Below the pieces are notes generated by a model. The model did not search any database and was not told the origin of the DNA. It worked only from the letters and a program-made list of their open reading frames with translations. Source: Elusimicrobiota bacterium (lineage in GTDB: Bacteria; Elusimicrobiota; Elusimicrobia; F11). Taken from it: 64,000 bases of DNA. The stretch covers positions 513-64,512 of the forward strand of contig JBJXGI010000044.1 of assembly GCA_046153645.1 (NCBI GenBank), given 5' to 3'. Position 1 is the stretch's first letter. Each line of letters opens with the position of its first letter. The translations under genes were made by a program, and so were the position numbers. Below are positions 10,737 to 58,024 of the stretch, in pieces.

Positions 10737-10929
10737 AAATATGGTCAAAGGTTTTTTTCGAGATGTTGTTAGCCGAATTCGACCGCAATAAAGGAATGAC
10801 TACGCTTGCATCAAAATCTTTCTCACCAATTTATCTAAATCTTCTAACTTTTGGATTTGCTCGTGATCAAACTCGATCACCAAAGGATTTGGCGTATCCG
10901 TTAACATGAGGTAGGTTCGAAAACGGTCT
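10737..10929. repeat. Direct repeat copy 2 (AbiEii 3'-end relic plus true 3' end of the giant gene)
   Basis: Matches 9925-10118. Confidence 0.95.
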
Positions 10930-57500: not shown

Positions 57501-58024
57501 GCGGTGAAGACGGGCCCTGATATTTTTCCTATTTTCAACAAATAGGTTGCAACTTTTTTTACGCTCTCCTGATCTTCAAAGGAATGAACGTTTTCTAAGT
57601 CGATGGCATGAAACGCCCCTTCTAACCCCACTGTGACCTTAGCGGTGTTTTGACTCATTTTTTCTATCAAGGCTGCGATGTTCCGCTGTGCTTCTTCATT
57701 TTGGTGAATGTCTTGGATATGGAGAATGGTCCCTTTAGAATTCTTTGGTCGAACCACTTTTCTAATGGTTCCATAGGCCAATAATGGGGTGAGGGTGCTA
57801 TCCAAGTCTGAGGTGTTTTTTAGAGATACAAAAGAAGGTGTATGTGAAAAAATGGACGGCAAAGAGCTTTTACCAACAGACGAAGAATCAATATGAACAA
57901 TTGATTTCTGCCGCTCTTTCCACAGGCTGGTTTCAGAGAAATGAGCCAATACGCTTTGGCTCAAAAAAATCAGTACCGCCATAACGGCACTTATACTTTT
58001 CTTAAGTTTTTTACTCCATTTCAT
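48527..58024 (-). CDS. Large 3,165-aa membrane protein, paralogous at the N-terminus to the giant protein; methyltransferase-like and UDPGP-family domains
   Basis: HIQDIHQNEEAQ, VGLEGAF, GGFH, FAQEKTPL shared with 10800..41339; DLFGGDG SAM motif I; NSGAGARF, RPLG, GDNI, EKGG nucleotidyltransferase-like motifs. Confidence 0.85.
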   Translation of the reverse strand: MKWSKKLKKSISAVMAVLIFLSQSVLAHFSETSLWKERQKSIVHIDSSSVGKSSLPSIFSHTPSFVSLKNTSDLDSTLTPLLAYGTIRKVVRPKNSKGTILHIQDIHQNEEAQRNIAALIEKMSQNTAKVTVGLEGAFHAIDLENVHSFEDQESVKKVATYLLKIGKISGPVFTALSHPERKIQLIGIDEKTHYHANVEAYQNIRKIKEEVENRIKQEENRLIKTRSELNNKKLIEFDDWVSRYNNKELSLGEYILTLAKWAHPQHKQTILFKEAYKAEKTLQIKKIEQERTDFIAQIWHKLSPQETKIFTTAGMALKNGDLSPSDFYGMLQGLAQKKGVKVDPQCELKKYFEYLGQSQKIKGEELFREISQLEQEIYGELSHTTQEKEYSGHVQWFRLVKKLTAFSLTREEWVKYQEKKLEIRKWKLDLNNLDLTAFERFYEEAEIRDEKMAKLILKDVLSEGKGVLSMKGLSTSSCPILVTGGFHSTGIENFLTTAGYSVISLTPKMTKVTAVDGSEYLLNAFAQEKTPLNKLFDGDKLFLAKAPIIEGSFLRALITMASFQKTKKWAESLLTGIFKGGTVVEGSDSLVKARFNQFDLSMAFGSRNQIKNLIVDIAISKTLSFLVASALTFYLKNQTIQFLVFDTIFFIFFFIVIQIQRNNLQKIPQLASTAAQFLVETIPDLVMNAVFVEEPRLIISPSGELIDRKYPAQNNTEAIKKHLSRLVQSMKSKSTLSNLTKEHETELKKQMIEGNVMGYRFFTSKYNPDIGDIIFHAERSFVYFPTSDLLIHIEDPMFLEREIEPLITLLNGNDWELDLTSRESAVREEYKWDNWKWTAPFWAYQLSIHPLFLHVVYELLRNEKSTDLEIWDLFGGDGTFLRNLNKLLRKSHHGKFEYTIIDGNSEVGDKIRHIPSRIIEHKFTTETDLAALAPGHPQVITAIGGLNFQVTDRAVALHMAKEIFKVLPEGGKFILGGFTSLLLNRKDLEDIGFEVKNTSVPFDITGSAIQLYVAVKPIKKQPAKVHEDLVFKGFLGRLEEFQMNPDIDLNFLLKDIESHLSKNVQAMLQTNIYTFNISPRDTTLLDVFLGLALYVLDKKLVGISDRQLEQWDLLITSLAQTIKQKYPENWGGPQGPDFIKIQDHRDPLYGYLSVPFLLQLALSTRFHDQASLGYDELSFSYVNLPPLYRDRVEKLSLFITGTHLQPNIYPREVTDFKSSLVSFKYALERLKEALEKGASDVKNALEWELAIGTYLFGLAYKDDKLIEIDLDAKPFLWDIPYRQNELEGNKLESNSDWVAMKKEFYDLIYTHQAEIKSSLTALKKEVQDVPDGQSWLSQRWVVMVHFFMNLPPWNHGASMESLMVGPQDYSADIFKHFFEFELKENSTHPEAKEQGGRFLVSRNLSPVLPVIAELENKLIQKPAPIPDPQQVIFEEGLKAIEELIALRPEIHKEIDGVISDSPMPNKQDFIDVLDFFKNYGPDKILRKTNEQLEINLRTFLVAGGKGRPIAHRQDTSVTFEGVLKTVRFFDKIPKDRESLVNMGKSLLDYYIFSLLVVSMAGKWEKWGDGYTTRVETLLKKLQFDDNSSGHVFVRDSSSLVTLAGSGYSMEAMEYLDIEDRAIEKFPNHAMLSALEIARHLRAIFYSLIVKLMPTSKSRHEKENKIDFVLLMLYLNSLLKEYLSTSGIRKKEMGRILLNIFSSDSDLLLNKEGLKRLKDLIDEDRKIISEPHSLSADQAKKYDVLIDNVFNFLETAAPQLSIQLEAEDGNSESEDAYDPASLFLFFSSDVMNLMAVTSLLYPEFKKIAFEDHLFSDAMGTSEISAELKSKWILELKKIIRRVRPHNNRQLDEFIFRDPSITYSRGGGKIFRSELKNNLNKFVEEKSGTSDISSVAPASLIYLYGISDEAPDWLQKFTRKFSTLFKWIGLVGAMLEAYVITQYLLPLDGIYVFWILLTIIFLHAELAYTIYKQNGGEASYKVLIFAWLQFGLIFGFYPFAQHFFGSYWPAVAFHLIIDFLIIFQDQIRSRLEKFIEKNIPGYRDLDPKYRNFRNDRDFYGLNNSPILNDISALNPKPRFGNNLSLSNSVGALFSSVGLLGLLYYFTPTILVSAIIFPIIFVVSYFIFQALGLMILAVLRSIGFIRAGPQGEYRLIRYLGYRGAIKISWIQDYFPTGATPQSHPELFALLDLKNPQSLYRKISLSHTVFLNELHPSLPNKKVILINEKKADPLSQVIAAPHEFMLFRIFYVRKYTVFLPLHWIINLLNEAIAFVGSSLASIPIFVDVLYQQRGLEHDRLAPDLRYRLKKYINPDTGGHYTEKDLEFFNGNPEVVHPLLKEETDLLGHQDPQAHQIVHLLDLTIVDPQTKKPVTVATLISEFKWDLALKAITRAVPPVLGMTARQFNSIILTHRNNQIIKDDELVGSIPDKPGKLIPVKLADGPEKIVDLTGLSPAEREAGQVLLERAFAEGKVASIQMNSGAGARFSDSKPWVPEFLTKAVLGVLQITFKNARIFSSVAALNLILWAGFVPVRAAKSFVSFLVTRDNKSYVQADINHDPLIQILGFKDQVNLSLTTAQSALPFLNRFGGVLYVPGDSGEKLWVRPLGALDAIFTHVINGDFFKWAHQGVEVASVKAGDNITVPDGNAIKILRDSGKPIMVILVDRELMFNLDIDGQPVSIKTLGNKKVISSQGLSETVRVREGRSFVYSSIKFKDEEKGEGKIILRKDGKKYFIDESKTQLPEGVSIKKDKQGAVEMHLDNNDVLSPKLQFLSSTLSDIPLVDVTLATADRQDVVFTVSYESTQRKPIPFIEEKTEEGWKEVPNTRIKIKEIVFEKGGTPFQNDIRDDHELEKSAEVDRLKLENRVLNSGEMLVHLPWLLEALGFSQNDWAHPPIQDEVLEKIWDRYKNVPPSVDTQKFRLDPRIKGHQLAWILAALLRADLDVVYAVVDREGVKTPGGYFALKESDTLKKQFEGISRMLETVLARLKEKSPEVDLSLLPPYLLAAEWTHVLFIAHSLMNGKSYWDPLPGQETSTHAVAKVVLNRKALLDHSQDMETSGLNLNAGERLLQMVQRTFVDIYKAGYKVFYQDKDSIKIPEDDTDTIEVLISAQPNNTALQTLDELKKSLESNFGVQVDILPPHIIDAAPKVGGPLLDKKIGGHEKGSQQA
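56598..56650. repeat. In-frame palindromic element with 12-bp perfect arms
   Basis: GACGTACTTAGT...ACTAAGTACGTC with an internal third arm ACTAAGAACGCC. Confidence 0.85.
56741..56768. repeat. In-frame heptamer run
   Basis: taatttc cattttc taatttc taatttc; encodes KLEIRKWKL. Confidence 0.75.

Follow-up and report, generated by a model that had tools for sequence, protein, structure and literature searches.

What kind of protein begins like an exported one and then runs on for thousands of residues, past ATPase modules and dozens of hydrophobic helices? The question is raised by giant gene A and its companion, giant gene B, in a 64,000-nt stretch of Elusimicrobiota bacterium (assembly GCA_046153645.1, contig JBJXGI010000044.1, positions 513-64,512), which we refer to as the window. 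Judged from their sequences, A and B belong to a superfamily of "bookend" megaproteins that is present in certain Elusimicrobiota lineages, has distant relatives named Omnitrophota and counts at least 48 paralogues in this genome. Members open with a Sec-type signal peptide and a ~550-aa head, behind which come hydrophobic helices, and close with a divergent module whose final ~16 residues make an amphipathic helix with one conserved Ala at its end. Between these constant ends, they carry 700-9,000 residues of unrelated, fast-changing modules. A first-pass annotation of the same DNA had described a family with a constant signal peptide and head, swappable cargo and perhaps a C-terminal signal, and this outline holds. 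Our best reading, to which we give a probability of roughly 40%, is a carrier that Sec inserts and tethers in the membrane, its head in the periplasm, its cargo in the cytoplasm and its C-terminus a tag for recognition, a chain of steps that we infer from the features described below.

A and B resemble each other at one end of the chain. BLASTP returns one high-scoring segment pair only, which joins residues 7-570 of A to residues 8-543 of B (30.9% identity, E 4.7e-68) and corresponds to nt 39630-41321 and 56396-58003, respectively. The shared exported-type head proposed earlier is thereby confirmed, at ~550 aa rather than ~450 aa, and the motifs quoted for it (E.sLW.ER.K, QDIH.N.EAQ, VG.EGAF, FERFY, GGFH and EKTPL..LF.G.KLF) are present in both proteins; in B, QDIH lies at residue 104, EGAF at 135, FERFY at 438 and GGFH at 484. 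After the head the two diverge, again as stated, with no further BLASTP similarity between them. We aligned 40 heads, with A and B as rows 1 and 2, to build a head profile (A1). By eye, most of these heads start with a Sec-like signal peptide, in which a basic start and a hydrophobic core of 11-15 residues lead to a small-x-small site (for example AFA/S or VLA/H), and E-x3-W-x-E-R-[KR] comes next. Nine positions are invariant in 40/40 heads: D127, H129, Q135, E157, G158, R475, G512, G513 and H515 in the numbering of A.

The genome is a 2.63-Mb metagenome-derived assembly of 105 contigs that is 99.7% complete. A and B detect 46 further open reading frames (ORFs) in it by their heads, and in all 48 the head is N-terminal. 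The smallest of these ORFs are broken pieces (down to 174 aa), the largest has 10,179 aa, and together they sum to 106,369 aa, or 12.2% of the DNA; some 12 more, 5'-truncated at contig ends, bear the family tail. A head-profile search of 1.84 billion cluster representatives yields 9,838 at E<=1e-3, of which 6,662 reach E<=1e-30. Among the 150 representatives listed, which are 553-6,142 aa long, the head match always starts at or before residue 154. The relatives are named Elusimicrobia or 'bacterium F11' in their sources, and the weakest matches are named Omnitrophota. Within a sample of the phylum, 94 of 401 genomes and 49 of 123 genera contain a head match; taxonomic families are wholly positive or wholly negative, and positive genomes typically hold 20-77 first-look candidates.

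Relatives are mostly fused to very different bodies and do not stand alone, in line with the modular family that had been proposed. Three other genomes (G003, G004, G009) nevertheless encode free-standing proteins of signal peptide plus head (559-613 aa; loci L053-L056) that lack a hydrophobic cluster, a body and the terminal Ala, two of them ~1.3 kb apart on one G004 contig; the head is therefore an autonomous exported unit. A different kind of short form is seen in our genome at C23:17662-20207, where a family gene is split into three ORFs of 178, 174 and 417 aa, in order the N-terminal part of the head, its C-terminal part, and a hydrophobic segment plus a tail ending ...KVILVAA. Read as one gene, this would be a ~770-aa "empty platform" with almost no cargo.

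The second constant element is the C-terminus. A ends in ...ILMQA and B in ...GSQQA, so the QA ends reported for these two genes are real; the penultimate residue nevertheless varies across the family, and the rule is "-xA", not "-QA". Our catalogue of terminal residues finds Ala strongly enriched, at the end of 30 of the 34 head ORFs with a complete 3' end as opposed to 143 of 1,949 other ORFs (Fisher p 5e-29). One of the four exceptions is genuine (...TQV); two come from a broken gene, the last part of which ends in ...LVAA; and the fourth probably runs on into the following ORF, with its ...SQA end. Foreign relatives, many of which are cut by contig ends, are Ala-ended in 137 of 217 cases. 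The last two residues of 77 Ala-ended foreign representatives are AA (17), QA (15), SA (14), MA (9), NA (6), FA (6), HA (4), YA (4), GA (1) and KA (1). The terminal Ala is encoded by GCT (17), GCG (11), GCC (6) and GCA (6), and all three stop codons occur, which argues that selection acts on the protein; a DNA-level cause was rejected on these grounds. The "orphan" ORF at 9989-10300 (minus strand, ending ...ILAQA), previously counted as an additional QA case, is a 93% copy of A's last 43 codons that lies within a direct repeat of A's 3' end and is therefore not independent evidence for the rule.

When 173 tails are aligned without gaps from the end, the columns stay in register from the C-terminus and read L at -15, [IL] at -12 and -11, [KR] at -10, A at -8, R at -7, [IV] at -5, [LA] at -4 and [ASQN] at -2. 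With a 16-residue matrix built from 143 foreign tails, most of 32 own termini score above the 99.9th percentile of internal positions. The motif is complete in A; B keeps the final ...QQA without the canonical Arg at -7. The ~130-300 aa before the end of the tail are highly divergent, and a hidden Markov model of this part recovers 12 ORFs only, all of them family members. An AF2 model of A's last 160 aa (pLDDT 65.9) has beta-alpha-beta-alpha units and a helix over residues 140-159. Foldseek finds no significant match to this model, and because the confidence of the model is low its matches carry no meaning. No free-standing tail was found among proteins of 165-525 aa or of 526-2,000 aa; the second range tests little, since the proteins that bear the tail used are longer. 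A complex predicted for A's head (residues 27-600) and its last 100 aa scores 0.00 with the fold of the partner uncertain, and head and tail barely co-vary (Spearman 0.075, p 0.18, 325 pairs).

Free C-termini of this general kind are read in other bacterial systems: ssrA-type ...LAA ends are recognised by ClpXP or FtsH, the PDZ domain of Prc/Tsp binds non-polar C-termini, and the RseA fragment ends ...VAA after intramembrane cleavage. The family tail resembles such C-terminal degrons in being short, hydrophobic or small in character, Ala-ended and dependent on the exact position of the end. It differs in being genetically encoded, in occurring on one protein family only, and in its free penultimate residue (A, S, Q, N, M and others).

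Between the bookends, the middle is replaced. Five paralogue pairs align at the head and over the last ~220-300 aa (25-58% identity) with nothing alignable between, so the cargo has really been swapped; head identity is 41-53% in the three pairs in which the head is comparable. Across all 325 pairs of 26 complete members, 325 have similar heads, 7 similar tails and 5 similar middles, and a similar middle occurs in none of the 7 tail-similar pairs. Turnover is also visible between genomes. Where own heads are up to 61% identical to foreign heads, at most 20% of the body can be aligned, one clear full-length orthologue pair excepted. In 80 other genomes of the class, the AAA+ region of A has one strong match (39% identity), and the 11 genomes of the same taxonomic family contain none; the body of B has two weak partial matches. 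Within its own genome, the body of A shares only transmembrane modules with three paralogues, and the ~2,500-residue body of B matches no other ORF at E<=1e-4 (BLAST).

Recognisable cargo is overwhelmingly of cytoplasm type. Pfam domains were found in 71 of the 120 relatives listed and comprise sigma-70, hexokinase, PGK, TIM, GAPDH, adenylate kinase, transketolase, phosphoglucomutase and UDPGP, and further helicases, SNF2, DnaJ, receiver, HATPase, radical SAM and AAA_5. Active-site signatures are retained in some: the radical-SAM cargo of one relative keeps CxxxCxxC in an otherwise Cys-poor chain, and the adenylate-kinase cargo of another keeps its P-loop. Of ten members scanned in our genome, five lack any Pfam match and one has a UDPGP-like part. 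In L027 (C71:4299-9779), sigma-70 regions 2 and 3 are followed by five stretches that match region 4 (Pfam E 2.3e-49), an odd set of DNA-binding helices behind a membrane anchor. Of the relatives, the distant P0232 alone carries a SecA domain (PF01043).

A hint of what the head may do comes from its invariant residues. In A, these include D127-x-H129 (QDIH), E157 (EGAF), 28 residues after H129, and G512-G513-x-H515 (GGFH). TIKI enzymes carry a 2His/2Glu motif, which in the MARTX effector RRSP consists of E3900, H3902, E3930 and H4030 according to the available part of that paper (PMC6254334), and the spacing of H129 and E157 equals that of H3902 and E3930 given there. The head has a motif of this type on its predicted core strands, with Asp replacing the first Glu; as in the TIKI superfamily (ChaN PF04187, erythromycin esterases, TraB/PrgY, Tiki, RRSP), [D/E]-x-H, a Glu 28-29 residues on, and G-x-G/F-H each end a predicted beta strand. 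Ten true ChaN proteins of the phylum have G-E-x-H, F-E-M and G-x-G-H in the same order, and signal-peptide-bearing ChaN homologues exist in the phylum just as the head bears one. PF04187 (Cofac_haem_bdg) matches 18 of the 40 heads weakly (best 5.8e-6), although A and B themselves have no match at E<=0.01; in the genome search two own heads, with neighbouring stretches added, pass its cut-off of 27.7 bits (28.1 and 30 bits). In an AF2 model of the head (pLDDT 79.8, pTM 0.76), helices alternate with six strands, and the motifs lie where strands 122-127, 151-156 and 506-512 end. Unlike the known superfamily, the head has its core divided by a helical insert of ~270 residues (~213-485 in the model), and no known member stands at the front of a giant membrane protein. 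In the ESM Atlas, the head of B is nearest to unnamed Omnitrophota clusters of 540-669 aa (score 0.91).

Many family genes also have DNA in common upstream. TTAAK-N6-8-TTAAK occurs in the upstream 130 nt of 16 of 41 family genes and 24 of 1,933 others (p 2e-18), usually starting 38-40 nt before the start codon, and TWACA-N4-7-TTWAC lies upstream of 12 of 41 and 6 of 1,933 (p 2e-17). B has both boxes, the second as a one-base variant of TTAAK-N6-8-TTAAK. Upstream of A lies another, AAATTTAACC-type variant, which by eye recurs in several other paralogues. The shared element suggests a single regulator for the whole set.

The bodies of A and B illustrate how different the cargo can be (Table 1). 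In A, the P-loops at residues 2350 (GPSGEGKT), 3034 (GYQGGGKS) and 3830 (GETGVAKT), found by motif scan, precede a von Willebrand A (VWA) domain. MoxR/midasin AAA+ machines likewise place a VWA domain with a MIDAS-like DxSxS behind AAA_5 modules; in contrast to those, only three P-loops were found in A, and the arrangement sits among the hydrophobic modules of a 10,179-aa membrane protein. Farther on, each of the eight tandem units combines a hydrophobic module of ~5 helices and a membrane-embedded HExxH (at 4960, 5556, 6093, 6805, 7522, 8111, 8835 and 9435) with 350-550 aa of helical repeats. This membrane module is also present in paralogues on contigs C91 and C29; neither Pfam nor NCBIfam gives it a name, and the ESM Atlas returned no usable match. 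The body of B has no Pfam, NCBIfam or PDB match. NCBIfam likewise has no match for A's head, the rest of B, A residues 2300-5000 or A's last 1,066 aa, and a PDB sequence search gave nothing significant for the head profile, B or A residues 1601-5000. Among paralogues, residues 669-769 of L019, a hydrophobic cluster behind the head, match a CPBP/Rce1-like intramembrane protease model at 22.9 bits (cut-off 22.4), and residues 560-596 of L007 match M50-type models weakly. Membrane-embedded protease-like parts are thus recurrent, in L019, in L007 and in A's eight HExxH modules.

Table 1. Features of giant genes A and B and of the adjoining DNA, in window coordinates.
Feature	Position (nt)	Strand	Description	Basis
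Giant gene A	10800-41339	minus	10,179 aa, single unbroken ORF	
A residues 1-26	41262-41339	minus	Sec-type signal peptide: basic n-region, hydrophobic core, AFA/S site	read from sequence
E-x3-W-x-E-R-[KR] motif		minus	directly behind the signal peptide of A	read from sequence
A residues 27-600	39540-41261	minus	family head	BLASTP, head alignment, AF2 model
A residues 634-749	39093-39440	minus	first hydrophobic (transmembrane) module	hydropathy; resembles module of paralogue C71_9895
A residues 766-1462	36954-39044	minus	two helical repeats of ~340 aa, 766-1103 and 1120-1462	
A residues 1504-1624	36468-36830	minus	second copy of the 634-749 hydrophobic module, 33% identity	
A residues ~2340-3960	29460-34322	minus	three AAA+ (AAA_5/MoxR-type) modules	Pfam AAA_5 E 2e-12, motif scan
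A residues 4329-4333	28341-28355	minus	soluble HETGH (HExxH), zincin-like motif without family-model match	motif scan
A residues 4621-4752	27084-27479	minus	von Willebrand A domain, DxSxS-type start (DVSGST)	Pfam VWA E 8.1e-7
A residues ~4805-9890	11670-26927	minus	eight tandem units	hydropathy, motif scan
A residues 9900-10179	10803-11642	minus	C-terminal domain, 280 aa	
A, last 16 aa	10803-10850	minus	family amphipathic helix ending in conserved Ala (...LDKLVRKILMQA)	
Giant gene B	48527-58024	minus	3,165 aa, unbroken ORF	
B residues 1-575	56300-58024	minus	signal peptide (1-27, VLA/H) and head	
B residues ~610-660	56045-56197	minus	pair of close hydrophobic helices (hairpin) right after the head	
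B residues 661-3165	48530-56044	minus	unique body; further hydrophobic clusters ~1942-2116, 2267, 2511	
B upstream element	58047-58084	minus	GTTACAACTTTTTTACC (58068-58084) and CTTAAAGAAACCTTAAG (58047-58063), 23-60 nt before the start codon	
Direct repeat pair, 183 nt	9936-10118 and 10747-10929		93% identity; carries A's 3' end	

How could such a chain work? If our carrier reading is right, the signal peptide would carry the head alone across the inner membrane, where it may act as a periplasmic hydrolase or ligand-binding module, and the hydrophobic clusters would stitch the chain into that membrane. Cargo that depends on ATP, S-adenosylmethionine (SAM) or NAD would remain at the cytoplasmic face: the AAA+/VWA motor in A and the sigma-70, glycolytic, kinase and radical-SAM modules in its relatives. 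The Ala-ended helix would serve as a tag: a protease, an unfoldase or a docking partner would recognise its free C-terminus. The constant ends would then serve placement and turnover rather than the chemistry of the cargo, and new members would arise by replacement of the middle between the bookends. It is the cargo's need for ATP, SAM or RNA polymerase, seen in the P-loops of A and the CxxxCxxC of the radical-SAM relative, that argues for the cytoplasmic face and favours a carrier.

A number of observations weigh against this reading, several of them on topology. Crude hydropathy counts place 0 to 5 helices behind the head, often in pairs. Two homologous hydrophobic modules lie between the head of A and its AAA+ region, and equal numbers of helices in the two would leave A's ATPases wherever the exported head is. 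Helix parity was compared with known cargo in five relatives, by counts too crude to assign a side; in the relative P0143 the counts give four helices before a GH18 domain and two between GH18 and a hexokinase, which would leave everything on the side of the head. A few relatives carry cargo that is usually secreted (subtilase S8, GH18, a trypsin-like domain). Cysteine makes up 0.16% of family residues, compared with 0.52% in signal-peptide-like soluble ORFs and 0.88% in cytoplasm-like ORFs (crude classes), and this poverty suits an exported protein better than a cytoplasmic one. That body orthologues are nearly absent within the taxonomic family looks more like a conflict or interface system than like a metabolic scaffold. 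No reader of the tail was identified, the one S41 peptidase of the genome being unremarkable. As for the head, the putative TIKI assignment rests on motifs and sub-threshold matches, and neither hhalign nor Foldseek confirms the fold: hhalign of the head profile with the ten true ChaN proteins gives a local match only (E 0.019, probability 2.4%), none of the 382 Foldseek matches of the whole 630-residue head model in the PDB reaches E<=0.001, and the 49 listed include neither ChaN nor Ere chains.

Could the chain instead lie wholly beyond the cytoplasm? As a delivered effector polyprotein of MARTX-like kind, it would leave the cell, insert its hairpins into a target membrane and be cut by the TIKI-like head or the HExxH modules, and the cargo would work inside a prey or host bacterium. 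Several features agree with this: the signal-peptide-like N-termini seen by eye in most of the 40 aligned heads, a cysteine content 4-5 times lower than in other ORFs, the extremely fast turnover of bodies between related genomes and the recurrence of protease-like parts in the head, in A's eight HExxH modules and in the CPBP/Rce1-like module of a paralogue. Cargo that works only in cytoplasm would, if exported, necessarily work in a foreign one, sigma-70 in particular needing a bacterial RNA polymerase, and the distant relatives are named Omnitrophota, a phylum whose giant proteins are discussed as predation tools in the available text of 10.1101/2023.11.21.568195. We still hold delivery to be rather unlikely. 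No exit route from a two-membrane cell was found: searches of the genome gave no C39 peptidase and no HlyD-type protein above cut-off, and the window shows no secretion genes. The up to ~41 hydrophobic segments of A should, moreover, halt Sec transfer. The earlier suggestion of a polyprotein is not borne out, since tail-like internal junctions (14 at a threshold of 10) are not enriched over the 11.8 +/- 3.6 of shuffled controls; internal matches to the tail matrix are not enriched over local shuffles or reversed sequences, and the linker GAR[LM]A, present 25 times in 219 foreign proteins (17 of these in the distant relatives P0238, with 7, and P0242, with 10), occurs 0 times in the genome's 41 long family members. 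The likeness to MARTX that had been drawn is unsupported too, for want of secretion partners and because the recognisable cargo consists of cytoplasm-type enzymes and ATPases, not toxins; toxin domains and immunity genes were not seen, and injecting PGK, TIM or transketolase would bring no obvious gain. A fully extracytoplasmic display, with the whole chain in the periplasm or lining the inner membrane from outside and the enzyme-like modules serving as binding or structural parts rather than ATP-using enzymes, would suit the low cysteine content, the two homologous modules between A's head and its ATPases, and the frequent pairing of helices (613/639, 1942/1980 and 2096/2116 in B; 1204/1248 in P0143). 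It would also suit partial Pfam matches of the cargo (PGK 6-216 of 379, TIM 77-213 of 245, the C-terminal domain of GAPDH alone), and a 2026 preprint on Omnitrophota long proteins gives a similar topology for its class with signal peptide and transmembrane helices, as far as its available text goes (10.64898/2026.06.07.730766). It is hard to square with the intact P-loops of A, the P-loop kept in adenylate-kinase cargo, the Fe-S ligand triad kept in radical-SAM cargo, and sigma-70, receiver, DnaJ and helicase modules, which have no known role outside the cytoplasm, and we consider it unlikely.

Better-known export systems account for the family far less well. Its multi-copy, modular make-up and the "orphan" 3' fragment downstream of A recall polymorphic toxins of the Rhs/CDI type, in which toxin tips are exchanged and orphan cassettes occur; the first-pass annotation had drawn a conceptual parallel to polymorphic toxins. 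That comparison has to be given up, because the variable part is the middle and the conserved part the C-terminus; the orphan duplicates A's own end instead of offering another tip, neither A nor B is followed by an immunity-like gene (B is followed by a TPR protein and a familyless 239-aa ORF), and Pfam scans show no Rhs, filamentous-haemagglutinin or toxin domains, all of which makes such a system very improbable here. Just as improbable is a substrate of type I secretion like the RTX proteins or LapA, in which the N-terminus would be a retention module and the C-terminus a secretion signal. Both ends are indeed constant, and the chains combine great length and a low cysteine content with a C-terminal helix that looks uncleaved. 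Type I secretion was nevertheless rejected, since the 99.7% complete genome has no C39 peptidase and no HlyD-type protein at cut-off, the best TIGR01843 (HlyD) match scoring 34.7 bits against 208.65; Pfam finds no RTX repeats in A or B, and a Sec signal peptide with dozens of hydrophobic helices does not fit such a substrate. An artefact, whether from faulty assembly of repeats or from chance read-through of decaying pseudogenes, might be suspected in a metagenome-derived assembly of 105 contigs with eight related units inside A. We give this practically no credence: A runs for 10,179 codons without a stop in 38%-GC DNA, its units cannot collapse or expand in assembly because they are only 25-65% identical at the protein level, and heads and tails are conserved across thousands of independent assemblies.

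Head and Ala tail might also belong to a single pathway of protein handling in Elusimicrobiota and Omnitrophota, so far undescribed, and form its opposite ends. A TIKI-type periplasmic hydrolase and the free terminal Ala would cooperate via docking, trimming or gated release, and cytoplasm-type enzymes would thereby be placed, linked head-to-tail or liberated across or along the membrane. We think this distinctly unlikely as it stands and offer it as a speculation. If it were true, any gene between the bookends would join the pathway, which would explain both the paradox of ATPases behind an export signal and the rapid turnover of cargo.

Where does the family belong among described systems? 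Its place is with the giant mosaic membrane proteins, and the closest described are the very long multi-enzyme membrane proteins of Omnitrophota (West-Roberts et al. 2023, 10.1101/2023.11.21.568195; 2026 preprint, 10.64898/2026.06.07.730766). As presented in the available text of these papers, those giants too are thousands of residues long, with a signal peptide, many transmembrane helices and borrowed metabolic or regulatory enzyme domains, and their topology is as unsettled as that of the A/B family; our weakest head-search matches are themselves named Omnitrophota, P0232 with its SecA domain among them. The differences are that relatives of A and B are named Elusimicrobia and that Pfam finds in A and B none of the SecA (SecA_DEAD), C39 or dockerin domains emphasised in the available text. 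That text calls the N-terminal regions domain-less except for C39 and mentions neither a TIKI-like head nor a terminal Ala rule. Elusimicrobia are described as rich in huge proteins in the available part of a 2024 survey (PMC11573180).

MARTX toxins likewise have conserved N- and C-terminal regions around exchangeable enzyme modules, and their effector RRSP has a TIKI fold (PMC6254334, available part). A and B, however, have no RTX repeats or cysteine protease domain (Pfam), a search of the genome turned up no type I secretion genes, and the family has a Sec signal peptide, many transmembrane helices and its TIKI-like part as constant head rather than as cargo. With polymorphic toxins, as treated in the available text of Zhang et al. 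2012 (PMC3482391), the family shares a modular, recombining, multi-copy nature and a constant trafficking end; it differs in its internal variable part, its conserved C-terminus and the absence of toxin/immunity pairs. In the literature available to us, supplementary tables aside, we found no published description of the head, the bookend architecture or the terminal Ala. New here are the 48-copy whole-genome census, the statistical Ala rule with its codon control, the pairwise proof of middle replacement and the free-standing heads.

The surroundings of A and B are housekeeping genes. They comprise a ZIP transporter, DnaX, RecR, HEAT and TPR proteins, YchF, an amino-acid kinase and Obg, and a Pfam scan of the window shows no secretion and no immunity genes around A and B, as had been noted before. 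A plus-strand gene at 9084-9980, whose start we take to resemble an AbiEii-type nucleotidyltransferase toxin, converges on A; its last 12 codons (...FFRDVVSRIRPQ) are duplicated together with A's end in the 183-nt repeat, at a spacing of 811 nt. A 311-aa HEAT-repeat protein is encoded between A and B at 45149-46084 (plus strand), and directly downstream of B, at 46096-48425 (minus strand), lie the 239-aa ORF without family and a 537-aa TPR protein.

Elsewhere in the genome there is a second set of very long or cysteine-poor ORFs without the head, examples being those of 8,730, 4,107, 652 and 1,025 aa (C79:12501-38693, C84:1525-13848, C69:38136-40094 and C16:10674-13751). Their ends, ...GKLVIVR, ...GQFTVIR, ...GRFVVIR and ...GKLVVLK, share G-[KQR]-hydrophobic-x-V-[IVL]-[RK], which may be another C-terminal sorting signal.

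One family thus occupies an eighth of a 2.6-Mb genome and accounts for thousands of public clusters, yet has no Pfam or NCBIfam model. It sharpens the question already raised for the Omnitrophota giants, namely what a chain with an export signal does with ATPases, sigma factors and glycolytic enzymes, and the bookend rule makes that question experimentally definable. The fixed ends also provide two simple markers by which such genes can be recognised, delimited and counted in metagenomes.

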